Assembly (NCBI GenBank): GCA_010093605.1 | Contig: MU004191.1 | Location: 1,038,816-1,102,815, forward strand | Source of the DNA: Lophium mytilinum | Taxonomy: Eukaryota | Length of the DNA stretch: 64,000 nt | Direction: 5' to 3' | In this document: positions 778 through 55,576 of the stretch, piece by piece | Layout of the letters: each line of letters begins with the position of its first letter | How positions within the stretch are numbered: position 1 is the stretch's first letter | Translations under genes and position numbers: made by a program | The notes under the pieces: generated by a model | The model's input: only the letters and a program-made list of their open reading frames with translations | Database searches by the model: none | What the model was told of the DNA's origin: nothing

Positions 778-3700
778 ATGATTTCCACCAGTCTTCATCA
801 GTACACCCCGGCTTTCAACCACCTGCCCTCGCAGAATCTGGGCAACCACGACCAACACCAGCATCTTCACAGCCAGCATATGGGCCAGACGGGACTGGAT
901 GCCCTCGCCCACAACTCTCAGTACGCCCTCCACTACCAGCAGCCACACCACGTCCTGCCTACGGGCAAAGGCATCGTCAAACCACGCCATCACGGCTACA
1001 GTAATGGGCCCATTGCAGCAGCTCCCCGCAGCCAGCGCAACGCCATGCTCCATGACCGCTCGGGACGTTCTTCGGCATCAGGGCCGGTGCGCCGTCGCAT
1101 CAGCCGTGCATGCGACCAGTGCAATCAGTTGAGGACCAAGTGCGATGGAAAGACTCCTTGTGCGCATTGTATGGGTGTGTATGGGTGCGTGCTTGATTTC
1201 CTACCTGCTAGAAGCTAATACGACTCAGAATTTGGCCTGACGTGCGAGTACGTACGGGAACGCAAGAAGAGAGGGAAAGCGTCCAGAAAGGACATCGCCC
1301 AGCAAGCCGCAGCAGCGGCGGTGGCGGGCACCAATCCAGAGTCTTCCCCTGGCAGTCCAAGATCTCGCGACGGCTTTTCTTCCGGGGATCAAGGCCTCAC
1401 TGACTCCACCACAGGAGGCCATGAAAGGTTTGATCGGCCACGCTCAATTAGCGATCTTCCACCGCCGAATCTACCTCCTCCAAGGTCTTCCAGAATAGCT
1501 AGTAGCCACAATACTGACGGTAGTGCCATGTACGATGGAATCAACCCTTTGTCACGAAATATGAATCTGTCAGCCATCGACGGTATGTCTGAAAACGGAC
1601 TTCACCACCAGATGGCACCTTCCAACATCGTGGATCCCAGTATACAAGGCCCTCGAATGGACAACAGCGGTGTCCATGATCGCAATATCCCCATGGTCGG
1701 AATGTCTGACTATGGCTCCTTGGACAACTTCAACCGCAACATGATGCATCCTTCTGCCGCCGCACCTAGCCATTCGGCGATGCACAGTGGAGCCAACGTC
1801 CTCCCTCAGCCCATCGTCCCATCAAATAGCATGCCAGAGTACTCAGACGGCCCTTACTCTATGATGAGTCCCCAAAACCAGCAGGCTCCTCCAAACGCGT
1901 ACCGCATGCCCACTAGCGAGTCACCAATGCCAGGCTTCATGGGAAATTCTCCAGTGTCCGGCTCACCTGGGTGGCTGTCGTTGCCATCGCCATCAGCTAC
2001 AATGTACGCCGTGGCCCCATCTCTACGTTATCCAGTGCTGCAGCCCTTAGTGCCCCACATAACGAACATCATCCCCCTTTCGCTTGCATGCGATCTCCTA
2101 GACCTGTACTTTCAGAGCTCTTCCTCTGCCTTTATGCAGCCGTTATCACCCTACGTTCTTGGGTACGTCTTTCGCAAACGATCTTTCTTAAGGCACAACC
2201 ACCCAAGAGTATGCAGTCCAGCCCTACTTGCAAGCATGCTCTGGATAGGAGCACAGACTAGCGAGTCGTCTTACCTCACATCACCACCCTCGGCTCGAGG
2301 CAAGATTTGTGAGAAGCTCTTGGAACTTACTGTTGGACTGCTCAAACCGCTCATCCACTCCTCAGCGAGTAGCGAGGCTAGTCCAACATATACGAATGCT
2401 ATCATCAACGGCGTAGCGTTAGGAGGTTTTGGAGTAGGAGCACAAGAAACCGGGCGCCACAGCTCGCCTGGGGCAACCAGCGGGCTCGACGACGTTGCTA
2501 CGTATATGCACCTCGCGATTGTCGTCTCTGCTAGCGAGTACAAGGCTGCCAGTCTTCGGTGGTGGAACGCTGCGTGGTCTTTAGCGAGGGAGCTCAAATT
2601 AGGCAGGGAGGTTCCACCAGATCTGATGCCCCATGACCAAGCCGGGGACGAAGATTCAGATGCCCCTGGAGAGGTCGACATGGACATGAACCATAGTATA
2701 CCCGGTGGTCATTCTAATGGTGCGCGAAATAACCCTTCAATCACCACTGAGGAGCAAAGAGAGGAGCGAAGGCGGATTTGGTGGCTGTTATACACGATGG
2801 ATCGCCATTTGGCGCTCTGCTACAATAGGCCACTGTTTTTGCTGGATATTGAGTGTAATGGCCTACTTCAACCGGTAGATGACTCCCTCTGGCAGGCTGG
2901 CGAGTATTTCAATGGGGACTGCGCTCAATCGTTTTCAGATCCAACCACCCCATATTTACGACGACGAGGTCCCGCTTTCGAATGCACTGGACACAGCATA
3001 TTCGGATATTTCCTACCTTTGATGACGATCCTAGGCGAGATCGTCGACCTCAATCACGCCCGCAACCATCCGAGGTTCGGCCTGCGTTTTCGAAGCGGCT
3101 CTGACTGGGACGACCAAGCCGCAGAGATTGTTAAACAGCTGGAAGCATATGGGGAGAGCCTTCAAGAGTTCAAGGCCCGGAGCCTTTCTGAAGCGAATGT
3201 CGAAGCCGTAACACCAAATCAGCACGATCCTAGCACCCCTTCAGCACGATCCGTCAACTCATCAACCTCTCGGATCCACGAGTCGATTCTGCAAACCAAA
3301 ATCGCATTTGCGTATGGAACGCATCTAATGCACACTCTACACATCCTCCTGAATGGAAAATGGGATCCCATATCCCTTCTCGACGATAACGATCTCTGGA
3401 TATCCTCCGAATCCTTCATTACTGCGACTGGTCACGCAGTCTCAGCCGCGGAGGCTATCAGCGATATTCTCGAAAACGACCCCGACCTTAGCTTTATGCC
3501 GTTCTTTTTCGGCATATACTTGCTACAGGGAAGCTTCCTACTCCTTCTGATAGCCGACAAGCTCCAAGGCGAAGCCAGCCCCAGCGTTGTGAGAGCATGC
3601 GAAAGCATTGTTCGAGCGCACGAAGCTTGTGTGGTGACGCTCAATACAGAATATCAGGTGGGTTCGCTTTCCTGCTTCCTCACTTCACTGCGACTCTCCC

Positions 3701-3905
3701 CTTTCCCGCCTCCCTCATCCGAAATGAGTGGAATAATGCTTACAAAAATACCCTTCCACAGAGAAATTTCCGCAAAGTTATGCGATCGGCTCTCGCCCAG
3801 GTGCGCGGACGCCTGCTGGAAGATTTCGGTGAACAGCAACTCCGCCGGCGTGAGGTGCTCGGGCTGTACCGATGGACGGGGGACGGGACCGGCCTCGCTC
3901 TCTGA
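778..3905 (+). CDS. xlnR: Xylanolytic transcriptional activator XlnR/Xyr1 (Zn2Cys6 plus fungal TF middle-homology domain), ~989 aa, 3 exons
   Basis: Exons 778-1174, 1229-3657, 3762-3905 with GT-AG introns 1175-1228 and 3658-3761. Contains [59 protein letters not shown] and the XlnR-typical C-terminus [17 protein letters not shown]...[13 protein letters not shown]. Confidence 0.96.
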
Positions 3906-5126
3906 ATCTGAATCCAAGACCTACCGGCGATAGCACATGAATAGCGATTGAACGCGGTCCAGATATCCGATGGCATTATGGTCAAGGTGACCCGTAATCC
4001 GTACACTTCTTCTGTCCCTCCCTGGTGATTATTCCCACTTTGATCTCTCTTCTCACGAAAATCATCGCTTAGAGCGTCACCATCGCTCAACCCATGACAC
4101 TCCTCTACATCTCAAACAACTTCTCGATAGTTAAAACACTCACATTGACCCCAAATGGACTTCGCTGGGTATATGGTACATCGGGGAGTAAAAGAATACA
4201 TGTTTTGAAAGGTTTAAGGTTGGCGGTTGCCGGATCTCTTTTGATATACCCACATCGCGCAGCATGTTCACCCTGTCTTAGCAGCGGGCTCGTTTACGCC
4301 TCCAAATCGCCACTTGTATACATCCGAAGGCGATGCTCCCACACATATCATATTGTCTTCATATCTATAAAATAGACTCTCCCGCACTTTAGGCAACTAT
4401 TTGATGCTATGCTATACGTCTAGTGCCGCAAAGACATCCGTGCGTACATAGCCTTAGCCCCTCAAACACGCAATCACACTCTCACATGCGGCTCAACGTT
4501 GAACGCCTGATGGTGGCTGATATGGGGCAGAGCGCTGTAAAACCGTGGAAAGGGTCTCAGATTTATGGACTGGAATCGTTCTCCGCATAACACTTAAAGA
4601 AACAACTTGTACGAAACAATCAGGTTTCCGCTATACCGCCAGGCATAAACATACCCAACTTTCCACGTACTCCAAGCCTTCAGCGCCCTGCGTTCGCGGA
4701 CCTACACGCCTTGCGAATACCGCTTCGAGAACGTCAAGAGGTTCCACAGGCGCGTTCGCGATTGCGTAACCCAGCCACCGGCGAGAGGATTTGACCCGAG
4801 TTGCGGAACGCGCTACTCATTTTGTGTTAAAAAATTTGGTGTTTTGAAGTGAATGTGACGGGCGATGGAAGAAGTATCGGAAGCGGTATCCACGTCACTC
4901 TCATCGTCACTCTCATCTGACGAGAAATCGACACCAGCAGGGCACTTGGGTGGCGCTGTGTTTGCTGCTTTCATTGTTGCCAGGAGCACCTTATGATCGC
5001 GTGGTTTCTCACGATTCAAAGCAGTCAAAAACAACAGTACATCGCTCGCTTTACGCGGCAGACGAACAAATTACATTTGCGCTAAGGTCTAGCCCTGATC
5101 TATCTCATTGCCCCCAACACTCCTTT

Positions 5127-6681
5127 TTAAATCGCCAAATTCGCACAGCTAAACGCCGGCCGCGTGCTCCCCGAATAATCCGCAATAATAGCCTTAACCG
5201 CCGCATACAACCCCGGCCCTAGCAAAAACAGCCCACAAATCATCACAAACACATGCACGACCGTCATAACCGACCGCCCAGCTCCGTTGAACAGATTCCC
5301 CTTGTAGAGCTGCCAGTACGCGACAGCGAAGTAGATGAAGCCGAAGAAGGAGTCGAAGGTAGCGCCGAGCAGGGAGAGGAAATCGCCCATGCTGGGCACG
5401 ACCTCGGAGAAGATGAAGGCGATGGCCCAGATGCCCGCCATGACGGCGGCCCATACGCCCCACCCGATGACGGTGTTGCTGTGCGCGTGGCGCGATTTGC
5501 CCATGATGCGGAAGTAGAGGAACTTGGCGGAGACGTTGGCGTAGATGACGCCGATGACAAGGGTGGGCACGATGACGAAGGCGAAGGAGCCCTTCTTGTA
5601 GGAGGTCACGCCTAGGCTGCCGAAAGCCGGGGCCGTGGAGTACTGGCCCAGGTAGCGGAAGCCGATTGCTGGGGGCACGATGAAGAGGAAGACGGAGATG
5701 CCGGCCAAGACGGCGAGGGCCTTGGGGAAGTCTTGCGGCTTCTCCATCTCGGAGATGAAGGTGGGGAAGAGGATTTGGGGAACCCAGAGGAAAGTGATGT
5801 TGAGCACGGCGTTCATGCAGGCGACCCAGGTGGTGCCCTCGGGAGGGAACGCGTAGGTCTTGACCGGGCCAAGGGTAGGGTAGTCGCCGTTGTATCCATA
5901 TAGCGGAGCATCTTCGATACCGGCGAAGATGAGAAAGAGGAGAATGGCGAGCCCCATGCAGGCAGCTGGCCAAGAGTCAGTAAATGGGATTGGAGGGTGG
6001 TGGAGAGCGCTGAGTACGCACCTGAGAACATGGACATGAAAGAGACGTGGTTGAGTGTCCTTGGCATCGACATGACTATGCCCATGAGGGTCACAATGAC
6101 GGAAAACACGACTGTACATAGCGAGTGGTCCGATAAGGTGTTGATGACCTTGGCGCCAGTGAGGACGTGGAAGCCGATGAGCAAGATGTTGTTCGCGAGC
6201 AACATAAATCCTGTGAACTCATACGCGATCCGGCTCTTTCCAAAAACGTAGTATCCAAAGTCGCAAATATCCTTGATCTGGGGGTGCTTCATTATGAACT
6301 TGTGCATGGTGATGGAGGTGATCCAGAAAAGGATACCGGCGACGACCATGGTGATTATTCCGGGAACCCATCCTAGCACGGAGAGCGACCATGTCTGGGC
6401 CATGATGGCAAGACAGACCTGGTCTCCGCACAGCAGCCAGGCGGCCTTTTGCCATGACATGGTTCGGAGCTTGATATCATGACTGTGGTCTATACAGTAT
6501 CTTGTCAGCTATCCAATTCAGCATGTTATAGCATCCAGCGAGTCCTACCTTCCGCAACCAGTGCGGTAATGGAGACATGCTCGCCGTCAGAGTCGGTCGC
6601 ATCGCCATAGCTCAGTGCGGGCTCTTGCTTCTCATCAGGATAGAGTGTGGCGCCCTTGTCGTCGGGGTATATGGCAGACAT
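5127..6681 (-). CDS. Neutral amino-acid permease (Mtr-like, Aa_trans/AAAP family), ~479 aa, 3 exons
   Basis: Exons 6681-6549, 6489-6022, 5965-5127 join in frame: MSAIYPDDK...DIKLRTMSWQKAAWLLCGDQVCLAIMAQTWSLSVLGWVPG...FPTFISEMEKPQDFPKAL. About 11 hydrophobic segments. Confidence 0.92.
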
Positions 6682-8086
6682 GGTGGGTGGAGTCTAGACG
6701 AGAGCTGATTAGTTGCACGCTCAAATCGTGGTGAATCAGATTACCCAGAACGGTGGAAAACCAGTTGAAGGCAGTACGAAGAAACAGACCCTGCAACCCG
6801 GTCGCGTGTACTTATACAATCATTGTTTGCCTCTGATCCTTGCAAAGAATTCCTTCAGCTCGCGGGCTCGCTGCAGCCCTAGATTGCGAATGTACAGCGG
6901 TGAATGGCGTTATCAGTTGGAAGTGGATAAGGCATCCGTGGACCCCTTGTAATGCTCCGGGAATGGCTTAGCAGCACCGATAGCAGGCTGACTAGAACAA
7001 CCACAGAACTTACGTTTCTCACCAGAGCAGCCCCGCTAGCGCTCTAGAACACCGGGGAGCCCGTGTGTCCCAGTGCAAGAGAGGGCCGAAGCGCGGTTCG
7101 AGGAGTGTCGGAGCTGCGTTGACAACGTTTAGCGCGCAATGGTGAATGCTCCACTTCAACACCATTCGCTCCATTTCCAGCCTCAATACGCCCCCGTGGC
7201 ATTGGGAGAGCCCAGCGATCTGATATGGGCTGGCGGGGATCGACTCTGGGGTCGCGTGCTCGCCCCAGACGCGCTCCCTCTGCCGCCGGCCGACGTCTCT
7301 CCCACGGTGGTGGACAGCTAGGTGTCCGAGCGCCCGGGGAGATGCCAGCCACCTGCCAGCGCTACATCCTAAGGTGACAGAACAGTGCGGGAACAGCCGG
7401 TCACATCTACCCATGGCAATCCCGCGTGGGTTTTGTTTTACGTAGGTGAAAATTGCACTGGCATTGTGGAGTGGCCGAAGCGACTGCTTCCTCTCTTCAG
7501 TGCTTCGTTATTGACGTGACCCGTCATGAGACACCGCAGAGATGGGGAAGAAGGCGAGGCGAAGTGCGAAAAGACGCGTAGGAACCAAGTCATGGCGCAG
7601 GTACAGTCACCAGATATCTTCATGGCGGCGAGGTGCTTGAGGTCGTCAGGACCAAGACTTTGGTCCAAGAGAGCCATGTCGGCATCGAAGCGAACAAGAG
7701 ATTTCCCAAGAGCACGGCATTCTTGGCTCTGAGCGACTATTGGGATGATGTTGGAGCTATTGGAAGGGACTTTTACTAAGTGCGCAAACTGTTCTGCCGC
7801 CGTCTGACTTGCCTCAATACACTTCTAGAGGTTCCAAAGGATATGGTGCCGAAAAATCGTAAGCTTGTTGAGCCAACTCAGACAACCTTATGACGGTGTC
7901 TGAGTCTGTTTGCGGCTGCACAAACATACGAAGTGGAGATTAGGCTACCTTTTGATGAAGCTATTACCTGTTCTCTGGGGCACCCCTCACAGTGGTGTCA
8001 ATCGAGCAAGAATAGAGCCAACGCTGGAGATATGCAGTTGCGCGGTCACCCCGTCGGTCAATCGAGAGCCCTCGAAAGACAACTCA

Positions 8087-8429
8087 AATTCAAAAGCTTC
8101 GGATTTTACATGCTCTTCTAATTCCATAACGCCTATGAAGCCACTCCTAAAAGTGTCAAGCTGGTCGCAGAAGACTCGCGCCATCAGATAGATTCAAGAT
8201 ATGTTACAAACAACAGTACGGGAAAGTACACCAAAGCAATATATCAACACACTTCACTGATTCAGACGCTTCAGATGTACATGCTCTTCTGATTTCAGAA
8301 AGCCTATAGAGCCACCCCTGACCGTGTCAAGCCAGTCGCAAAACACTAGCGCCAGAATATACATTTAAGACATGTTACAAACACAGTACGGAAAAGTACC
8401 CACAAAGTAATATATCAACAGGCTTCACC
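8087..8429. repeat. Diverged direct duplication, two ~172-bp units
   Basis: GCTTC(G/A)GAT-TACATGCTCTTCT...GTGTCAAGC...ATGTTACAAAC...AATATATCAAC occurs starting at ~8096 and again at ~8268. Confidence 0.85.
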
Positions 8430-8465
8430 CCGACCCGCCAATCTTCAGAAGAAGCGAAAATACGT

Positions 8466-11400
8466 TCACTTCCTATTCTTGTCCTTGTTGTCCTTCTTCT
8501 TCTTCTTCGAAGGCCCAGCCTCACCACCATCATCAGCCTTCCGCTTCTTCGACCCCCATTTCTCGAAATCCACATTATTCTCCATATTCGCCACAAGCTC
8601 AACGCCGTTGTCAGCAAGGGACTGATCGAACACCCTCTGCGTCTCTATCCGTTCCGGATACCCATCGAGCTCCACGTCCCGGCCCCTAGTCGCACCCTGC
8701 CTCTGCGCGTGGTCGAACTGCCGATTGGCAGGGACACGGCTCGTCCTCACCACATAATCTTTACACGCAAGAAACGCGTAGATATCAGCCCAGCCAACAG
8801 CACCCGCCAGAGCCGCATTAACCAACCAGCGCGCGTCCTCTTGGTCACTGACGTCCCCACACTTCAACGCCTTCTTTGGGCTCGGGTTGATCTCCAGCCC
8901 CAGCGCCACCGCCCACGCGTTCAAGACAGAGTGAACGCCGCACGAATTGGTGCCCCCTGGCTGCTGTGGGACTGGGATGGGCGTTGCCTGTTTGTCTGGG
9001 TACTTGAGGCGGTCATTGCCCCACTGGTCCCACGTGACGAAGTCTCGGGCGTTGCGGAGCGCGTCTCTGTCGTGGCGTGGTCTGTTTTCTGGCCGAGTGG
9101 CCTTGTTGTTCGGATCCGAGTCCAGGCGGTAGAAGCCCACGCGCTCGCCTTCCTGCTGGAAGACGTAGAGGAGGATGTGTGCGCCAGCCCGCCCTCCTTT
9201 TGGTGGTTTTTCGGAGAAGATGTAGGGGTAGAGCCAGGGTTGTCGCGGCCGGCTTACTCTGTAGGCTGCGAGGTCCATTCCAGTGCCGCGTCCGATCTGC
9301 GCCATTTCGGACATTTGTTGAGTGGCGTGCGCGAACCCGGGAGGGGTAAGGTCGTTGGGGTTCTGAGCTTGTTGGTAGCTGGTGATGGCTTCTGTGACGG
9401 ACGCTATGCCGCCTATCACATCCTCTAACCCGAGAGCGCCATTGGTTATCTGATAGGTATGTTTCTTCTCGTTCTTCATGGCGCTTTGTATGTCGGCTCG
9501 AATCTGGTCCACCCTGCTTCTGTAGTAGCTGCACGGGTCCTGAAGCAAATCATCCCAGTACTTTCGTTTTACGTCATGCCCATCGTCGTTCGGGTCGTAG
9601 ATACCTAGGTCGATCAAGTGTTGCTTCATCCCCTCATCATGACTATCGTGTGGAAATCGCTCTGCGTGAGACAACCCTTCCGGAAAGTTTGTGTTGACGG
9701 TGCGGTCTAAAGAGGCGTACGTAACGTCCGAATCGTCCGAATCTGCAAGCATTTCCGCCACTACTCCGTCTAGCTCGTGCTCGGAAGCGATCGAAACGGT
9801 ATTTCCTTGAGTTTGACGGTTTATCGGGATATTTGAAGTTGCGATTACGAATTCGTGGCATCGCAGAAAGCCATAGATGAGCCGGTAGTTTGCATTGCCA
9901 CCAGTCGCGAGGATGAAGAGCTCCCGAGCATCTCTGTAAAAGTCTTCTGTTGCTTGGAAGGCTTCGTTGATCTCCAGTCCAAGGGCAATTGCCCAAGCAT
10001 TGCATACGGTGTGGTAGCCACAGCCCCAGCCGTTTGGTTGCTGGGCTGCTGGAGCCCAAAAGATCTCTCTCGGTAATTCGGGCGCTGGCTCAGAGCCAGT
10101 AGATGGAGCAATGTGCCACTTAGTCCATTGTATGAGATTGCAGACGCGGTTGTATATTGTCGTTCGCATGTTTGCGGTGTAGTGATGCCTCCTGGAGTCC
10201 AGAACATCGGCTGTTATTGATCTGTCTGCGCCCATCTGAATGACGACCAGAACGATATGCTGATCCAAAAAGATGGGTACCAGCATGGGTCTTCCGGGCC
10301 TTAGTGCTCGACGGAATTCGACTCCCTCCGGAGGGTCGCGAATCGCATCGATACTATTTAGAATGCTAGAGACGTGAGAACTAACGGCGTTGAATCCGGA
10401 TCGAATGTCCATATTTTGTGCCAGCAGCAGAAGTAATGAGGCAATCGAGAGTAGAATCTCATCGTCTCTCATAAAAGCTCCAGGCTTACTCCACCGAGGC
10501 TCTTTGCCGTCTTTGAAGATCTTCACAGATAGCCGAGTCTTAACCAAGCCGAGTTGAGACCGATAGAAGGCACAAGGAGATTCGTCTGGCGAGATTATAT
10601 CCGACGGTGGCGGCCGGCTCTTGGGAAGTTCTAGCTTTTGAGGTCGTTTTAGCGTCCCCGAAGGTTGTGCTGGTACAGCGTATTCTCCCAAAGTGATAGT
10701 AGTGTTGGTTACAGCGGTGTCTGACTGGTTTTGAGGTACCGCACTAAGAGTAGGATCTTGCGTACCCTTTTGAAAAGATTACAATGTTAGCAAAGCCTTC
10801 CGGATTTATGGGACCGAACTCACCCGTTTGTATTGATATTGTGCACCCTCTGAACCTCCCCAGAAGAACACGGCTTGGTCGGCAATCTCAATGTAGTTGA
10901 AAGAAAGCAACGGCCCGACGATTTCGACGTTGTCCGCCCGATCGTTGGTGTAGTCTACCCCGTTGATTCGAACAACATCTCCATGTGCGATTCGAAGGAA
11001 CCATCCGTAGTTTCTCCGATTCTGGTTCAACTCTCTGGTATTCAATCGGTACAAGACGACGGGCTCGGGCGCTGATGACGCCGAGGCATCCTCAGAGTTC
11101 GGTACATTGAAGTTTCTATAATTGAAGTTACTCAATATTGTGTGACTAGACTCGGGAAACTAGGAGCGGGAATCAACTTACACTCTGATCAACCTATGAC
11201 TTCGTACCACAACGGGTAGTCTGGTAGGCCCAGAAGCATCGGCGCTGTCTTGATTCTTGCTTGGCTCAGGTTCGTCCCGCCAATACACAGCAGCTTCGCC
11301 TTCCTGCATCCCCTGGATTCGACCGATAGCACTATCGCGTTCATTGCCAATGACCGAATCTGCCAAACGTGCCCAAAGCTGTTGTACGGCGTCGCTGGCC

Positions 11401-11675
11401 TGGCCTAGGATTCTTGGTCTGTAGTTTCGTTGCTTATATGCGAGAGGAGATGAGATTGGACAGCGGCTCGGTTGAAGGAGTCTGTATCCTTCCGGAAGCT
11501 CTGCTTCAGGAGTATCCTGCCCGGTTATGGGGGAATGGTCCACGGGATTGCCGTCTATCGTCAAGTCTCTCTCGTTTGGCGGCTCTTGTTGCTCTGGCTC
11601 TTGTTGCTCCGGCTCAGGAAGAGGTGCTTTCCCCTTCCCTTTCGTGCCTTTCTTGGGGGCTTTCTTCTTCGCCAT
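8466..11675 (-). CDS. Uncharacterised ~1028-aa protein with two tandem Ulp1/C48 (CE-clan)-like cysteine protease domains and basic NLS-like termini, 3 exons
   Basis: Exons 11675-11182, 11115-10824, 10766-8466 join in phase through introns GTAAGT..TAG (11181-11116) and GTGAGT..GCTAAC..AAG (10823-10767). Two repeats carry H..D..QQP..CG motifs (QHIVLV/VLDS/QQPNGWGCG and AHILLY/RLDS/QQPGGTNSCG). Confidence 0.8.
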
Positions 11676-12399
11676 CTTCGAACTTGGTATTTTGCTGGCG
11701 TAGATTCAGCTTCGATGAATCCGATCGTGTGCTATATCTGATGAAATGATGATTGTGAATTTCTTGACGGTCAAGCAAAGAAAGAGTGACTCGAGCTTCG
11801 TTGAAGGCGGATGTTCGCGTTCAAGTTGGCTTCGTAGTGAGGTGGGAACAATGAATAGCTATTGAAAACAATAGCACTAACCGCGAGCGGCGACATCTCG
11901 AACCACAAAGAAAAATCTTCACTGGGACTGAAGCGACAAGAATTGAATTGCTTTTGACAATTGAATTGCGATAAGTATAATACTACTCCCTAGCTATACG
12001 ACGGTAGATTCGTTGGTCTCGTTGACTTCCGTCCCACTTGGAATGCGATTAGCACTCTCCTTGCTTTTGTACAAGCTCTCAACGACCGGATTTCAGTTCG
12101 CCTTGTACGAGAATATACACAGTGATAGATACTGTTTTTGACTGAGACTCTTCTATCCCGTAGTGTTTTTAAAGCGGCTGGGCGTATTAGCCGAGTACTC
12201 TATTACTGAGATGAGCCCGTTTGGTGTTCCACTATGTGACTCGGCGCGAGTACTTGCACACATCGTAGCAATTCTGGGTCCGAGACCATCTGAGATGTCC
12301 ATCTCATAGAATACAGTCGGCGTGTGCGTGGGACGCGGCTGTTGACCTTTGTGCCACCTTGATTCGCCAAAGACATTTTGGAGAACCGAGGTCTTTATC

Positions 12400-13276
12400 T
12401 TATGCTCCGTGGCTGTGATCTGCGTATTTCTCTATCGCATTGAAGACGACTGAGTTGTCTACGGCGCAATCAGCACCCAGCTCGCGACATCCTAGATCAG
12501 CTTCCAACTCAGCTCCGACATTCGACCTCATGCTTCGGATGATATTCGCAGCATACACACACGAGGATGTGTTGTTATATAGTGATTGATCCGGCAGATA
12601 ATTCGTCTCCTCAGGATACATCCATTGTGCACTTGGTATCTCGTAGGCGTAGTTCAGCTGTCGGTAGGATTCGTCAGGCATCTCTGACTGCTGGGTGGCA
12701 GTCGGCATGTGCGTGAATGTTGGAGTCGGGATGCTAGTAGGTGTATCGATGCTACTCGAGCCGATTGAGTGTGGACTGGCAGACTCGTTCCCGGTTTCCA
12801 GGCCCTTGGAGCGCTGGTGGGACAGCGAAAGCGTGGGAGGAAGGGGCACGCTTGTTGCTCCCGACGGTACACATGGAACACGGCCACAGGATGTCTGCCC
12901 ATTGCATGCCCTCTTCTGTCCTAGTATCGAGTCCAGGACTGGCGCCGCAGAAGCATGCTCGGGGGTGGAGACATGCCTGCCCATGACGGCGACTATTTCA
13001 GACTCAGACACGCCCCGCTCTCGCAGCAGGGCGCGCAGGCGTTTGTTCTCCTCCAACACGCGTCGAGCGGCATTCTGTATCTCAGCGGACGCCTCGACGC
13101 CTGTCTGCTCGCAACTCCGCAGCTTCGTCTCCAGCTCGTGAAGGTACTCCTTGCGCCGCGCGCGCGATCGCCGCTGGTTGTCTCGGATGCGGGCCAGGTT
13201 GCTAGAACTCTGCTACTGTCAGTACTGTGCTTGGCTGCTGAAGGAGTAGAAGTACCGCGACAGGAGTCTCGCTCAT
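12400..13276 (-). CDS. bZIP transcription factor, 2 exons
   Basis: Basic region and zipper NLARIRDNQRRSRARRKEYLHELETKLRSCEQTGVEASAEIQNAARRVLEENKRLRALL, with a Cys-containing C-terminal region (TSSCVYAANII...LGCRELGADCAVDN). The short first exon 13276-13256 and intron 13255-13210 are less certain. Confidence 0.85.
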
Positions 13277-47663: not shown

Positions 47664-50600
47664 TCACTCCTCATCGCTCTCCACCTCCGCCGTATCATCA
47701 TGGAACGTCTTGCCCTCAGTAGTAGGCTTAATCATCCCAACCCTGATGCAGAAGTCGCCGAACCGCTCTCCCTCATTCCGCTCGATCGCGTACCGCTTCA
47801 GCAGCGGCTTCATGATGTCCAGAATCTCTTCTTCTTTGATGGAGCTCCGGTAAAGCTTGTTTAGGCGGTGCCCGTGGTAGCCACCGCCGAGGTACATGTT
47901 GTACGCACCAAACGCCTTGCCGACGAAAGCGACTTCTGCGAGCCATGGGCGAGCACAGCCGTTCGGACAACCCGTCATGCGCATGACAATACTGTCCTGG
48001 CGCAGGCCAGTTTCTTCTACCACGCCTTCGAGCTTGGTGATGAGTTCGGGTAGATAGCGCTCGCTCTCGGCCATGGCGAGACCGCAGGTGGGGAAGGCAA
48101 CGCAGGCGGAGGAGGAGAGGCGTAAGGCGGAGAAGTTTGTGTTGTCCAGCTTGTACTTGGCCATTAGATCCTTCATAGCGGGAAGGTCTGCGTCGGCGAC
48201 GTTTGAGAGTATGAGATGCTGGTTGCCTGTAAGACGGAACTCGCCCTTGTGCACCTTTGCGATCTCGATGAGGCCGGTCTTCATGGGGAAGTCGGCAGTG
48301 TCTTCAATGCGGCCGTTCTCAATGAAGAAGGTGAAATGGTTAAGACCGTGCTCGTCCTTTTGCCAGCCGAAGGTGTCGATGTTGCTGTCGAACTTGAAGG
48401 GCCGGGGTTCTTGGAACTTGTCGCCCCATAGTTCTTCGACCTTGCCCTTGAAGACATCGACGCCCATGTCGTCCATAGTGTACTTTAGACGGGCATGCTT
48501 ACGGTTCTTGCGGTCACCATGATCGCGCTGGACAAGCATGACCTTTTCGCATGCGATGTGTACGGTCTCCTTGGGCACGTAGCCAAGCATGCTGCCAGTA
48601 CGAGGATAAGTCTTCTTGTTATTATGGGTAACACCCATACCACCTCCAGCTAAGAGGTTGAATCCAACGAGGTGGCCGTCCGAGCCTTTAATGGCAATAA
48701 GGCCAATGTCGTGGGCATACACGTCGGTGTCGTTGTGTGGGGGGATCGCAATCGTGATCTTGAACTTTCGAGGGAGATACGTAGGGCCATAAAGCGGTTC
48801 GTGGTCAACAATAGCATTGCCAGCCACCTGTGTCTTCTCTTTCGTGTCTTCGTCCTTCAACCAGATCTCGTGATAGGCAGTTGTAGATGGTAGAAGGTGA
48901 TCACTGATCTTCTGCGAAACAGTATGGACTTCGGAGTGATACACAGACTGCTGTGGTAGGCTACTGCACATGACATTACGGTTAACGTCACCGCAGGCTG
49001 CGATGGTGGTCATCAGGGCTCTGTTGATAGCTTGCATGGCCGGTCGGAGCTTTCCTTTAACGACACCATGGAACTGGAATGTCTGCCGGGTGGTCAATTT
49101 CATTGTCTCGTTGCCCAGCTTTGTGCTGATCTCGTCCATTTGCAGCCATTGTTTGGGAGTAGCAACACCACCCGCAAGTCGGCATCGAATCATGAAAGAG
49201 TAGGCTGGCTCCAGTCCTTGTGCTTTCCTTTCGTCCCGAAGATCGCGGTCGTCTTGCATGTAGGTTCCGTGAAACTTAGTGAGCTGCTGATCAGGTGCTG
49301 AGATTGCGCCAGTAGATGTATCCTTGAGGCCCTCAGCGATAGTCCCTCGAAGGAAGTTCGACTCGATCTTGATGTCTTCGTTGGTAATTGGCGGTGGTTC
49401 ATCCGGAAGTCCCTCAACCTTGTCTACGCCCAACGCTTGCCATAATTTAGGTTCCCAGTCAGCGTATCCAGTTTGGTAGGCATCCGGATCTTGATCGTCT
49501 CCGAGACCGCACTCAGTCAACGGGGTTGCTCCCAGAGTTACGAATCTTGTATGGAGGTCTTTGCCAGGCTTGTTGTAGTAAATCTTGTCTTCCTTTCTTG
49601 GCCAGTAATGGCTGTCGCCGAGCGCGAAAATTGAGAAGTTCACAGTGCCTAAGTCGATATCCGTAGAGTCTCGGACGGTTTCCCAGAAAGTTCTTCCGTT
49701 TTGTGGAAATTCGCCCTGGCCTGCCGTGCTGGTGAGTATAACGACGTTCTGCTCGCTGGAAAGGTCCTCCAATGGATAGTCGTCCATTGCCATGGCTAGA
49801 GTCTTCAGGCCTCGCGCTTTACCGCGTCGGGCTAACCTCTTAGCAAGATTCTCAGCATTGCCGTTATCAGACGCAAACAGAACAGTCATTGGGTCCCCGG
49901 CAAGACCATCCAACAACTTGCTGTACGCGTCCTTTGCCTTCCTCTTCTGCAATTGTCGTACTTCGGAGCCGTACGATCCCGACAAGTTGGCGGAAAAGTC
50001 TGGATGGCGTTTCATGAGTTGAGAAAGGTAGTTGTCTCGTTTTAGGAACTCTTCCAATTCCTTCTTGATCCTCTCGGAATCAAGCTGGAAGTTTGGCTCG
50101 CCCTTCTCATCCCCTCGAGGGTTCCATCGGTAGAGTGGCCAGTAGCCAGAATCGATCGCCTTCTTCGTTTCTTGTAGCACTGTTATTGCGGAATGGTTTT
50201 CTTTCTCATATGGGAGGTAGGCGACAACCACCGAAGGCCCGTCAAATTTGTCGGCTTCAATCATGGCTTCCAGGACCTGGGTGTAGGAACCATAGACAGC
50301 AACAGACGCAACATATGCGTTTCCAAAGTTCATAGCGTATAGGCCAATATCCTTCTTTCTTCGTGCTGCATCCGCTGCCGCTCGTTCGGAATACGGCTGT
50401 GAATCGATGATGAGCATGTTGACATTCTCACCAGAAGCCAACACATGGTGAACACCGGAGTTGCCAAGGTCGTATGCCCAGGCATCGGATCCAATCAACC
50501 AAGGCGACTCTTTGTAGAATAGCCCCTTAGATGACAGTAGCTGGGAAGCGACTGGTGATCCATCGTTGCTGAGCCTAGAGATGACTTCTGTAGCCAACGC

Positions 50601-52434
50601 ACCCGCTTTCTCTTCATCGTCAGCAACAAGAGCCCATCGTGAAAGCCATTGCTGCGGAGCGTCTGTGATAAAGTCACGCGACTTGGCAGCAGCTTGGACT
50701 TCTTCAATGAATCGTTTCCGGTGCTCCTTTCTCGCTAGTAGCGACCCAAAGCCGTATTCAGGGCTCGAAGAAATCTCCGGTGAGATGCCGGCATGGGCTT
50801 TCCCCAACTGATTTGCAATAAGGAGTCGTTGGTCAAAAACCTGTTGAAGCATCTTCACATACGGGTTTTCGATTATAGGTTGCTCCAGCTTGGCTGGTCT
50901 TGGCCTGCCCTGGGGCCCATCAAGCTTTCCGATTTGAAGATTCTGAATGGGGGAGTCTGACAAGAGGTTTTGGAACACACCGCGCAGCGCCTGGCCTACA
51001 GTGCTTTGGTTGATATAACCCAATTGATGGCCTACAACAGTGGTTTGGTGAGGTCCTGTCGTCTTGAGCGACATCAGCAGATCTAAGAGAAGCGGGCCCC
51101 ATTTGGTGGTCTTGCGGCGGACTTGTTCCAACACGGCAATCTTCTTGAGTGATTTTGGGAGCGATTCAACCATGGCACGACCAAGCCATGGCCGATATAG
51201 CCTGACGGTGATGATGCCAGCACTTGCATATTGCTCTGTGGAAGGGGCCGAGTCGATCTCTTGAGCAAAGAGCGCAGTGTCGGCACCAAACAGAAGAAGA
51301 GCAGCCTCAGCCGTCGCCGGTCCTGTGTACTCAAAGGGAGTATATAGGCGGCTCGTGCTAGTGGATATGATACTCCAGATCGCGGTGGCAAATTGGAAAA
51401 TCTCGTCAGACGAGATTTGCTTGTGTTCCAGAGATTCAACAGATGTACCGGCTGATGAGGATTTGGCACTGGTAATGCTGCTCTCGCGTCTCGAAGAACC
51501 CTCAGAGGACTCTCGCGCGCTGGAACGATCAGGCAGAGTCAAAGTCTTGCCATCTGTTGCAGGGCTCACACGACCAGTAGGTTGGCCGATCGTTGTAGTG
51601 TTGGCTTGACTCCGAGGTAGTGACAGATGTGCCACTCGGCCGTCATCTGCGTACAGGCTCGATTCCCCAGATGGGGTGCTTTGGAATGCTTTGATAGCAC
51701 CCAAATCCAGCACCGAGTGTAACAGTTCTTCGCTTTCAACTGGTATGACTTTGCTCATAGCAATGCTCTCCGTGTCAAAGAAGTGTATGACACCCTTGCC
51801 GGATTTGATGGCAAGGGCTTGGGCAGTAATGGCAAGATCCTGCGCCTCCTGGAGGGTTTCAGACTGAATGAAGGTGAAGCCGGACTGTCTAATGGAAGTG
51901 ATGTCGGAATAGTCCGGGAAGCCCGAGGGCTGTACGGATACATGGATGACGACCGGGTATTGCGCCAGTTTGTAGAGGTGGGGTATAGACTTGACGAGGA
52001 TCGAGGAGGTGGAAGTGACTGAGACGAGTTTGCCCGACCGAATTGGTTGGAACACGGAGAGCAATGGGTCGGCATTGTACCGCACTGGGAGAATCTTGTA
52101 CGGTCAGTACATGGTAGTTTTAATTGGGACAGTAATCATGTACCTCTGGCTGCTTTGCTACCACGCCCGCCTTTTTGCTCGAGCTCAATGAACGTAGGAA
52201 GGGTGAAAATTCCGAGTCGGTAGCAAGAGAAGGCTGTACAGAAATAACTACGTCGCTCGCAGCATATGCAATTCGCGCCACTGGGTTGAGGATAAATTGT
52301 CAGTGAAATTCGTCGAAGTGATGGGCAGCATACCCGCGTCGCATCGCGGGTCAAGGGTAGTAACTGCGGGGCAACCAGAATCACTTACCAGCTTCGCCAG
52401 CAGAGGCAATGCTAGGAGCGGAAGTCCCCTCCAT
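47664..52434 (-). CDS. MET5: Assimilatory sulfite reductase beta subunit (hemoprotein with flavodoxin and PFOR-like N-terminal domains), ~1537 aa, 3 exons
   Basis: Exons 52434-52389, 52280-52144, 52094-47664. Contains GSDAWAYDLG, flavodoxin TVLFASDNGNAE and STAGQGEFP, LPRKFK, and siroheme/4Fe-4S ligands CVAFPTC and TGCPNGC. Confidence 0.96.
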
Positions 52435-52663
52435 GATGGCAATGGTGGGAGAAGAGTGATATGGGGAGAGAAGGAGGAGGAGGCGGCGGAGAGGAACAAT
52501 TGAAGACAAAGCAGTCAATGACACTTGTAACAAAATATTTTGCCCACCTGAGCGCGGTGTTCACGCCGATAAAGCTCCGAGGCGTGGAGACGAAGCCTTC
52601 CCGAGCACGCCATTTCGAAAGCACGGGGCCAGACCTCCAACGAGGTGAATGCAGTTGGTCAGC

Positions 52664-52704
52664 CTGTTGCGCATGGAAATAAGTGGCCTTTTTATGGCAC
52701 GGGC
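52664..52704 (+). repeat. Left terminal inverted repeat of the Tc1-like element
   Basis: CTGTTGCGCATGGAAATAAGTGGCCTTTTTATGGCACGGGC is the reverse complement of 54098-54138 with two transition mismatches. Confidence 0.93.
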
Positions 52705-54097
52705 CCGAACACCAACACCAACGCCGCAAATAAAGCAATTAATACTTTATTATTTAGCCTATAGCCTTAAGAACAGCTTCTAGCCTATCTATATACTTCT
52801 TATACATGCCCTTAATTATCTTTTATTTAATTTCCCGGGTAAAAACCCGGATAAAGCGCCTTAGAGCGCCGGCCTTAGTACTTTCTCTCTTAGTATAGAA
52901 TCTTCTCTTAACTAGAGCAGCAAGAGATTCTATAATAGATATATCTAGTAAATAGCCTAGCATCTATATTAAGTTTAGACTATTCTTCTCTACCTACTTC
53001 TTTATAGCTATTACTTTATAACCTAAATCTCTATCTTAGTAAAGCTTAAGGCCTTATTTATACTATTCTAGATTACTTAAAAGAATAGGGAGAATCTACT
53101 TAGTATAGCACTTTAAGCTTATCTTTCTATTCTTATTTTCTATATTATAGAGAATATAACGCCGGTAGTTCTATCTAATAACTATAAAAATACTAAATAT
53201 TTTAAATAGTTCTTTATCTCTCTATACCCGGGTCTTTTAGTTCTTTATAATATGCTTCTTCCTATAAATATTTATAGAAAGATAGCAATACTTATTACTA
53301 ATTCTTCTTTTAATTCTTCTAGTATTTTAGGGCCCTAAGCTAAAGTAGAATTTATCTAAAAAGTAGATATTATACTAGTTAATTACTTTTAGCCGAATAA
53401 ATAGCTAATTCTATACCTAATTAACCCTTCTTTCTACTATCTATTAAGTAAGTAATTATTCTTCTTCTATTACTACTATTATAAGGTTTTTATCTCTTTT
53501 ATAAGTAATTTAAATGGCTAGATTATTTAAGGGATATATTTCTAGTAGTTTAAAATGCTTTATTAAAGGTAATTAAATAGCAACCTCTTTTACTATATTC
53601 TGCTAGAATTGCTGCTTATTCTCTTAATCTATTATTAGATTATTAATTAGATTACTAATAGCTCTAGTATTATCTTAAGTTAGGCTATAAGGACGTCCTC
53701 TTAGATTAGGTTCTTTCTATTTATTAATGGTAAGGTATTCTCCTAATTTAATAATAGAAGTTTATTATTTAAATAAATAGCTAGATATCTTTTAGACAAC
53801 CTCTTATAATATTTAGAAGCCTATCTTCTAGCTATATAATCTACTAGCCTATATAAGCGCTCGAGCGGCCGTTAAAGGGTAAGAATTAGGGGGGGAATAG
53901 CGCAGGCTAGAAGGTGTAGAAATAATCTTTCTACGCTATAGTTAGTCTCTATATACTTCTATAATCTTAGGTATAATAAAAAAGGGAATTAATAGCTTTA
54001 ATTTAATCCAGAAATAAGTTAAATTAGTTAAGAATTGGTGGTGCAAGAGCATGGGGGAATCTTGTTGTTTGTTGTGATCGCCCAAGTGCACGGGCTA

Positions 54098-54587: not shown

Positions 54588-55576
54588 ATGCCTGCGCCTT
54601 TGCTCGGAGAGAGTGAGAGCTGCAATGCCGCCCCGCAGCCCGTCTCGCCCCTCGTAGCTGACACCCCTCCACCTCTGCCGGACGTCTGCGCCAAGATATA
54701 CAACCGCATCAATGCCTTCCTAGACGAAAAGACCGATTCCCAGCGCCTGAAGAACCTCCAGGAGCAGACGCGAATCTCCTTGGACGTCATTTCCCAAGCG
54801 CTGGATCGCTATAGGTATACCTCGGCCACGCCTCAACCCCAGGGGGGAGCTTGTTTGTTGACATAAAACCAGCCTCTCAGAGCTGTCGCTATCCTACAAT
54901 GGCGGCAAGGATTGCCTGGTACTCCTCATCCTGTACCTATACGGCCTGCACGCGAAAGGCCTGACGCGCCCGACGCCCAACAACGTCCACAGCTCCCACC
55001 ACGAGCCCATCCAATGCGTCTACATCCAATCGCAGCACCCGTTCCAAGAAGTCGAGGACTTCGTCGCCTCCAGCGCGTCCATCTACTCGCTGTCGCTGGA
55101 CCACTACGCCAAGCCTATGAAGGCGGCCTTTGCAGACTACCTGCACGACAAGCCGAGCGTGAAAGCCATCTTCGTCGGCACGCGTCGGACGGACCCCCAT
55201 GGCGCGGCGCTCACGCATTTCGACCCCACCGACCATGGATGGCCGAAGTTCATGCGCATACATCCCGTGATTGACTGGCACTATGTAGAGATATGGACGG
55301 TGAGTTCCAATTTTGGGGCGTTTTGTGCTCCCCGAACACAGGCTGACTGCTCTTGTCCCGTAGTTCATCCGGCACCTGCAAATACCGTACTGCGTGCTCT
55401 ACGACCACGGCTACACTTCTTTAGGTGGCACCACAGACACGTTGCCCAACCCCGCCCTACTGCGCGACCCGACACTGGCCCAGAACGGCGACCGGAACGG
55501 CGCCGGCACGCTGAAATACCGCCCAGCGTACGAGCTTGTTGAGGACGAGGAGGAGCGCCTCGGAAGGGATAGATAG
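54588..55576 (+). CDS. FAD1: FAD synthase (FMN adenylyltransferase, PAPS-reductase-like fold), 3 exons
   Basis: Exons 54588-54814, 54873-55299, 55364-55576. Motifs LSYNGGKDC, IFVGTRRTDPHG, GWPKFMRIHPVIDW, LYDHGYTSLGG and EEERLGR. An upstream in-frame ATG exists at 54396. Confidence 0.92.

Follow-up and report, generated by a model that had tools for sequence, protein, structure and literature searches.

Two tandem Ulp1-like domains in a Lophium mytilinum protein, a minimal member of an uncharacterised fungal family

The subject of this work is a gene on the minus strand of contig MU004191.1 of the fungus Lophium mytilinum (Dothideomycetes, order Mytilinidiales; assembly GCA_010093605.1). It lies at 8466-11675 of a 64,000-nucleotide stretch of that contig, which was analysed as a whole and is called the window below, and its predicted product of 1028 residues carries two Ulp1-like domains in tandem, referred to here as head 1 and head 2. 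Proteases of the Ulp/SENP type are known as single-domain enzymes, and their specificity comes from one active site together with flanking targeting regions. An earlier reading made from the letters of the window alone (the sequence-only reading) had pointed to this gene as a possible double-headed protease. We followed it up with comparisons of proteins, profiles, solved structures, trees and public sequencing data.

Results

The gene consists of three exons (Table 1), which were spliced in silico starting from the ATG at 11675; within the exon-1 open frame there is no in-frame ATG upstream of this position. The resulting model of 1028 residues agrees letter for letter with the deposited protein P0002, named hypothetical protein BU16DRAFT_540549 (Lophium mytilinum) in GenBank. 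The joining of three open frames into one protein, as proposed by the sequence-only reading, is thus borne out, and only the C-terminal end that it quoted was too short: the protein runs eight residues further and ends in KKKKKDNKDKNRK. The same reading called the protein unnamed, but it does have an annotation: in UniRef the name of the product opens with 'Ubiquitin-like protease family'. In relatives, the full automatic name is 'Ubiquitin-like protease family profile domain-containing protein'.

The two introns were compared with a public run, X1, whose kind was guessed as RNA and in which 94% of the sampled words of the locus are present. The run gave a single contig of 9110 nucleotides with zero differing letters against the window. 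This contig is unbroken over 8000-12200, extends past both ends, and crosses both introns at GT..AG borders (CT..AC on the plus strand). At intron 2 its gap lies at 10766-10822, and a shift by one base fits equally well. Since the contig skips exactly both introns, a molecule without them exists in run X1, and the simple reading is that the contig is spliced messenger RNA.

For the two homologous units, which the sequence-only reading had placed at 10577-9813 and 9536-8718, pairwise alignment gave 28% identity over 286 columns (E 2e-22). This is far above chance, and by this alignment heads 1 and 2 go back to a genuine duplication, an old one. His, Asp, Gln and Cys are present in both heads in the order of Ulp1; the His and Cys codons stand exactly where they had been read from the letters, and the Asp and Gln codons were found too. 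Neither head shows the lost catalytic residues of a pseudo-protease. Next to the catalytic His, both heads carry Ile where Ulp1 has Trp, as the earlier reading had also seen. When aligned with head 1, head 2 has an insert between the strand before the His and the His itself.

Table 1. Features of the gene and of its neighbourhood (positions in the window; all parts of the gene are on the minus strand)
Feature	Position	Strand	Remarks
Open frame	8466-10778	-	ORF (open reading frame) listing; 770 codons
Open frame	10806-11159	-	ORF listing
Open frame	11178-11705	-	ORF listing
Exon 1	11182..11675	-	ATG 11675-11673; basic N-terminus MAKKKAPKKGTKGKGK (11628-11675) and start of the family-specific N-terminal module
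Intron 1	11116..11181	-	66 nucleotides, GTAAGT...TAG; exactly skipped in run X1 contig
Exon 2	10824..11115	-	292 nucleotides; core of the N-terminal module, GWFLRIAHGDVVRINGVDY...IVGPLLSFNYIEIADQAVFFW
Intron 2	10767..10823	-	57 nucleotides, GTGAGT...AAG; run X1 contig skips 57 nucleotides
Exon 3	8466..10766	-	Stop codon 8466-8468; both heads in one unbroken open frame
N-terminal module, family-specific	10608..11468	-	Residues about 70-315, across both introns
Head 1	9813..10577	-	Residues 326-580; Ulp1-like, 'penultimate' type
Head 1 catalytic codons	His 10257-10259, Asp 10197-10199, Gln 10038-10040, Cys 10020-10022	-	Codons located
Linker between heads	9537..9812	-	92 residues, acidic, Ser-rich
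Head 2	8718..9536	-	Residues 673-945; Ulp1-like, 'last' type
Head 2 catalytic codons	His 9177-9179, Asp 9120-9122, Gln 8961-8963, Cys 8940-8942	-	Codons located
C-terminal basic tail KKRKADDGGEAGPSKKKKKDNKDKNRK	8469..8549	-	Shaped like a bipartite nuclear localisation signal
Fungal transcription factor	1219-3933		Neighbour gene
Amino-acid transporter	5127-6218		Neighbour gene

From end to end the protein is laid out as a basic N-terminus, the N-terminal module, two C48-type domains and a basic tail. The module was found near the N-terminus in 55 of 157 family proteins (jackhmmer). It has no Pfam match and no usable match in the language-model Atlas, and its profile, A2, matched none of the solved structures (best E 1, a cupin). 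A decayed head was ruled out as its origin, with an hhalign probability of 0.07% against the head profile, and an idea formed by eye, that the module is FHA-like, found no support. Levansucrase matches to the linker (E about 0.004) were put down to chance; they are absent from the profile searches. Basic clusters stand at both ends of the Lophium protein, and among relatives they occur in the first 60 residues of 15 out of 63 and in the last 80 of 20 out of 63. The C-terminal tail would, by the consensus for such signals, be a bipartite nuclear signal.

Two features overlap or adjoin the gene. A 368-codon open frame runs antisense to head 2 on the plus strand (8322-9428); its translation is of low complexity, and the codon bias of the sense gene probably accounts for the frame. 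Directly 3' of the stop codon, at 8088-8428, a unit of 171 nucleotides is present in two tandem copies (80% matches), inside the region spanned by the intron-less contig.

The tie of the heads to known proteases was examined with Pfam, with solved structures and with the Atlas. Within a longer stretch, head 1 matches Pfam Peptidase_C48 at 21.1-21.8 bits (21.1 bits corresponds to E 3e-4), above the cut-off of 20.7. An alignment of the two-head region of the Lophium protein and 38 relatives was prepared (A1), and 15 of its 39 members have a C48 match at E <= 0.01. Among large relatives such a match is present in 6 of 17, the best with E 6.7e-10 and 39.6 bits. When A1 was compared as a profile with solved structures, it matched 6dg4 at E 5e-5, and all four catalytic residues lined up with those of the enzyme; this entry is a Chaetomium thermophilum SUMO protease according to excerpts of PMC13440354. 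A second profile (A3), built from 13 last-type heads with head 2 among them, matched 6dg4 at E 2.6e-7, Ulp2 at 0.015 and ChlaDUB2 at 0.024, the last in an alignment running from the pre-His strand through the Cys, and it also matched SENP7 (0.28-0.33) and yeast Ulp1 1euv (0.58). Of the eight A3 matches at E <= 1, seven carry the names of enzymes of clan CE; the remaining one, which has no specific name, is a 'conserved membrane protein'. In the Atlas, 16 of 30 matches of head 2 fall in Peptidase_C48 clusters, which we take as a lead only.

Because profiles A1 and A3 match solved enzymes, we conclude that both heads are homologues of the Ulp1/SENP catalytic domain, in line with the Ulp1/CE-clan-like character that the sequence-only reading had given them. 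For head 1 this link comes from the mixed profile A1, not from a profile of penultimate copies only, and Pfam supports it marginally. For head 2 the membership in C48 is indirect, since it is homologous to head 1 and profile A3 matches. Taken together, the profiles tie both unit types weakly to the solved Ulp1/Ulp2/SENP/ChlaDUB enzymes, and a CE-clan fold of the heads is what this tie would predict.

A HMMER scan of the two-head region against 1.84 billion representatives found 295 proteins at E <= 0.001, including 57 at E <= 1e-30, while word-indexed protein searches found few relatives (1, 9 and 2 matches). The family counts given here refer to the best 150 of the 295 relatives together with the Lophium protein, where each entry is a cluster at 50% identity and the 150 relatives include gene models of uncertain quality; P0002-P0064 are called the closer relatives. 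The unit profile found 345 copies in these 151 proteins. One copy is present in 46 proteins, two in 53, three in 27, four in 18, five in 4, six in 1 and seven in 2, so that the survey of copy number proposed earlier shows the Lophium protein to be no lone oddity. The fusion of the heads is real, because several of the arrays were predicted by gene callers limited to unbroken frames and because one exon holds both heads here. By these counts the Lophium protein is the minimal member of a tandem family of 1-7 copies. It can be seen as the bare conserved core of the family, since it has two intact heads and no decayed copies.

The copies of one protein differ in how well they keep their catalytic residues, depending on their position in the array. 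Among the closer relatives, and counting only copies that cover the four columns, His-Asp-Gln-Cys is intact in 49 of 57 cases at the last position, in 43 of 57 at the penultimate one and in 2 of 72 upstream of these. For all proteins with at least two copies the corresponding values are 74/96, 49/91 and 6/84. The contrast in the closer relatives between the last two positions (92 of 114 intact) and the upstream ones (2 of 72) has a Fisher p of 9e-29. Mean identity between species follows the same order: 0.37 for last, 0.35 for penultimate and 0.25-0.26 for upstream copies.

Some further traits of the copies and of single members were recorded. Units open with Pro-Cys (columns 1-2) in 95-100% of last and penultimate copies, and a second conserved Cys is found near the unit end (column 233) in 68-90%; these are distinct from the catalytic Cys. 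A UBA-type match at the C-terminus was found in 5 of 18 scanned proteins, which are more distant two-head members, and two of these matches are above the Pfam cut-off. In two large members, P0157 (Massariosphaeria phaeospora) and P0158 (Setomelanomma holmii), a thioredoxin domain forms the C-terminus, through either a genuine fusion or the merging of a neighbouring gene into the model. The 7-copy protein P0003 of Byssothecium circinans (3133 residues) is present with the same sequence under two GenBank accessions and on two contigs of the one species, as if more than 9 kilobases had been duplicated very recently.

Trees were computed with IQ-TREE from 52 copies and with FastTree from 174 copies. 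In the IQ-TREE tree, head 2 belongs to a set of 25 rows, all last copies, with a value of 99 in the Shimodaira-Hasegawa-like approximate likelihood-ratio test, and the nearest rows of head 1 are all penultimate copies. The labels penultimate and last need 2 changes on the tree compared with 17.5 when shuffled, and none of 500 shuffles came as low. A single clade of penultimate copies was not rejected by the approximately unbiased test (p 0.126). FastTree agrees on the placement of head 2 (support 0.991) and places head 1 less surely. The best BLASTP match of head 1 is a penultimate copy in 53 of 58 closer relatives, and that of head 2 is a last copy in 27 and a penultimate copy in 25. On this comparison the split between the two heads is old, and other species have a separate counterpart of each paralogue. 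These separate counterparts, and the 28% identity of the heads, ruled out a recent duplication.

Thirty clusters were checked for organism names, which 13 of them had, and four more names came from the word-indexed search. The named genera are Byssothecium, Amniculicola, Melanomma, Aaosphaeria, Polyplosphaeria, Clohesyomyces, Plenodomus, Ascochyta, Paraphaeosphaeria, Massariosphaeria, Setomelanomma, Macrophomina, Phyllosticta, Coniosporium, Mytilinidion, Lepidopterella and the lichen fungus Mycoblastus. Six lineages were checked: five are Dothideomycetes, and Mycoblastus is a Lecanoromycete. The remaining genera we take to be Dothideomycetes. The closest full-length relative is a protein of 1208 residues from Lepidopterella palustris, of the same order as Lophium, which aligns over the N-terminal region and both heads. 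The nearest relative overall is P0008 of Mytilinidion resinicola, a truncated model of 299 residues with 73% identity. No related loci were found in metagenome contigs with P0011 or P0030. The family is uncharacterised, and its members are all unnamed, 'hypothetical' or automatically named.

The locus stands among ordinary single-copy or housekeeping genes. Besides the two neighbours in Table 1, the more distant genes of the window encode a Pex2/12 protein, histidine kinases, a sulfite reductase, a PAPS reductase and a SNF2-RING helicase. We found no inverted terminal repeats around the gene, no transposase nearby in the window and no signature of repeat-induced point mutation (RIP) at the locus. 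A transposon-borne C48 domain was ruled out at this locus by the missing terminal repeats and the lack of a nearby transposase. The upstream neighbour on the minus strand (12400-13212) has by eye the look of a basic region with leucine zipper (RRSRARRKEYLHELE...), and it has no Pfam match at E <= 0.01. Far from the gene, an AT-rich block at 52600-54000 (GC fraction 0.24-0.43) is RIP-like, with TpA/ApT of 1.3-1.6 and (CpA+TpG)/(ApC+GpT) of 0.09-0.37; it lies between the divergent sulfite reductase (47664-52103, minus strand) and PAPS reductase (54862-55542, plus strand) genes.

Discussion

We favour, by somewhat better than even odds, the view that the Lophium protein is a nuclear isopeptidase or peptidase for a ubiquitin-like modifier, a minimal family member with two non-redundant active sites. 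Its homology and architecture are much surer than its activity. Such an enzyme would remove or trim a ubiquitin-like modifier (SUMO, ubiquitin or NEDD8/Rub1) in the nucleus, with one active site per head, and the two sites would act on different modifiers, linkages or chain positions. Catalysis at both sites, in non-redundant roles, is suggested because exactly these two positions of the array keep their residues across genera. A nuclear protease for ubiquitin-like modifiers is suggested by three things: the heads are related to SUMO proteases and deubiquitinases, distant members have UBA domains, and both termini are basic. In the closer relatives, extra upstream copies decay into pseudo-protease domains while the two C-terminal domains stay intact. 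On this view the role of readers that bind the modifier would fall to the degenerate heads in larger relatives and to the UBA domains in distant ones. The activity, the nuclear location and the cooperation of the heads are all predictions drawn from sequence.

Several observations weigh against this view. Head 1 scores below the C48 cut-off of Pfam (20.7 bits) both when taken alone (19.2 bits) and in the whole protein (20.0 bits), head 2 scanned directly has no Pfam match, and such a match is seen in only 1 of 13 last-type heads scanned in isolation. All profile matches cover the catalytic half only (Pfam positions 87-189 of 217; 6dg4 residues 127-221). The first 100 or so residues of each unit are without known similarity, and no profile match extends there. 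A single-sequence AlphaFold2 model of head 1 had a mean predicted local distance difference test score of 38 and was unusable for judging the CE-clan fold. The rule that the last two copies are intact becomes looser in the wider set: across all listed relatives both are intact in only 39 of 87 proteins, and one 6-copy Macrophomina protein (P0065) contradicts the rule. The UBA domains are confined to distant members and the Lophium protein has none. As for the nuclear setting, the closest full-length relative, from Lepidopterella, lacks a basic cluster in its tail. When the Mytilinidion model P0008 is compared with 9848-10213 of the window (minus strand), its last 30 residues match an out-of-frame reading of the Lophium gene just before the Gln..Cys of head 1, and the Mytilinidion gene may be dispensable or a pseudogene, or its gene model may be wrong. 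A further point is the tunnel of Ulp1. According to excerpts of PMC9603560, H514 of Ulp1 is followed by W515, which together with W448 and S513 builds a tight tunnel for Gly-Gly. The position of W515 is mostly I/F/T/H across the family and is Ile in the Lophium heads, and therefore their substrate may not be a modifier that ends in Gly-Gly. The region of the units where W448 would have its counterpart, in their N-terminal half, is not reached by any profile match.

This last point leads to the question of whether the heads, if active, cut something else. Both could be cysteine proteases acting on other proteins or on the chain itself, releasing units of the array in the manner of the viral processing proteases of clan CE. 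The Ile in place of the tunnel Trp of Ulp1 in both heads, with the variable residue in the family, would fit this, as would the N-terminal half of the units, which matches no C48 profile, and the sharp unit starts (Pro-Cys, 95-100%) and ends (Arg-Arg/Gln), which look like those of cleavable modules. We nevertheless judge it improbable: by profile, the solved structures closest to the heads are those of SUMO proteases and deubiquitinases, and distant members carry UBA domains. Self-cleavage in particular finds no conserved Gly-Gly or other candidate cleavage motif in the linker consensus, and the decay of upstream copies fits readers better than released enzymes. A more ambitious version of the nuclear modifier protease, to which we also give a low probability, is a multi-head machine in which each of two different CE-clan sites would have its own modifier or linkage to cleave, such as SUMO and ubiquitin within mixed chains, while decayed heads or UBA domains hold the chain in register; the Lophium protein would then be the bare two-blade core. 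If the heads do not cut at all, they could serve as a scaffold that binds ubiquitin-like modifiers or other proteins, as pseudo-deubiquitinases do. In relatives 78 of 84 upstream copies lack His-Asp-Gln-Cys, the tunnel Trp is absent, and pseudo-deubiquitinases are well known as activators or scaffolds of their partners (PMC10919355, in excerpts). The Lophium heads, however, have all four catalytic residues, and the intact 92 of 114 copies at the last two positions compared with 2 of 72 upstream are hard to explain without catalysis. We give a purely binding role the lowest probability among the alternatives.

The remaining alternative concerns the gene itself, which could be fast-evolving, dispensable and specific to its lineage, possibly derived from a mobile element, its intact residues reflecting youth or weak selection. 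C48 domains are carried on several transposon families. The copy number of 1-7 with decayed upstream copies would agree with dispensability, and so would the 3133-residue Byssothecium circinans member on two contigs under two accessions and the truncated, frame-shifted Mytilinidion model. There is also a precedent, as extra Ulp1-like genes on Colletotrichum minichromosomes are reported to be dispensable in the excerpted part of PMC10779208. The locus argues otherwise, with its housekeeping neighbourhood and with no transposase, terminal inverted repeats or RIP signature, and the gene is spliced in public run X1. Both head types are old and keep their catalytic residues across many genera, and the N-terminal module is conserved too. 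We hold a dispensable gene to be unlikely.

When compared with known systems, the best solved relatives by profile are Ulp1 and SENP1-2 (6DG4, 1EUV). The likeness lies in the order of His, Asp, Gln and Cys and in a Q-x5/6-C-G motif followed by a helix-like N-A-W. Two canonical marks of Ulp1/SENP are missing from the Lophium protein: it has two catalytic domains where these enzymes have one per protein, and His-Ile where Ulp1 has H514-W515. The N-terminal half of its units is also not detectably alike. Canonical fungal Ulp1, Ulp2 and Den1 have one domain and are present across fungi, whereas the Lophium protein has two and the range of its family, by the names found, is the Dothideomycetes and one Lecanoromycete; it is thus not an orthologue of these. 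Ulp2 and SENP6-7, the editors of poly-SUMO chains, are nuclear proteins of considerable length whose catalytic domain contains inserted loops. They are matched weakly by profile in the Gln..Cys region (Ulp2 5lnb at E 0.015, SENP7 at 0.28-0.33), and head 2 also has an insert, before the catalytic His, but their catalytic domain is single.

Other likenesses are looser. The profile of last-type heads aligns with ChlaDUB2 (6mrn/6oam) from the pre-His strand through the Cys at a marginal E of 0.024, and an ElaD cluster of the ElaD/SseL type is among the Atlas matches of head 2. Such bacterial clan-CE enzymes show, by the names of their structures in PDB, that clan-CE domains can act on ubiquitin or NEDD8, but they are single-domain secreted effectors. 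Larger relatives mix intact and degenerate heads, as do the MPN+/MPN- pairs and pseudo-deubiquitinases described in excerpts of PMC10919355; those pairs are separate subunits of another fold, whereas the copies of this family are fused in one chain, and the Lophium protein itself is without a degenerate copy. In architecture only, HDAC6 is comparable, which has two homologous tandem catalytic domains and a ubiquitin reader; distant family members end in UBA. Its fold and chemistry are unrelated, and it serves only as an example of how two active domains in tandem can share out their work. In fungi and plants there are also Ulp1-like genes that are accessory or carried by transposons, paralogues on Colletotrichum minichromosomes among them. 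These are likewise non-canonical, lineage-specific and outside the core SUMO pathway, but they are single-domain and lie in repeat-rich or accessory DNA, in contrast to the housekeeping setting found here. The 'tandem Ulp1' of Colletotrichum minichromosomes, as far as the excerpts of PMC10779208 go, refers to two neighbouring genes and not to one protein. Among open-access papers and bioRxiv, we found none that describes a single protein with tandem Ulp1/C48 domains, and six locus tags of the family did not turn up in any of them. The earlier suggestion of an undescribed system has to be qualified because the Ulp-type domain was already annotated automatically.

Conclusions

The family keeps two old, distinct and intact active sites next to each other across many genera, while further copies decay. 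Should the heads prove inactive or the gene dispensable, it would be a lineage-specific curiosity. If the multi-head machine is true, it would be, to our knowledge and by the searches made, the first case of a single polypeptide in which two active sites of clan CE cooperate. The family offers a natural experiment on how tandem catalytic domains divide their labour and how pseudo-protease domains originate, and on what a CE-clan site without one tunnel tryptophan recognises. For such questions the Lophium protein of 1028 residues is the smallest member of the family and the one best suited to expression and assays.

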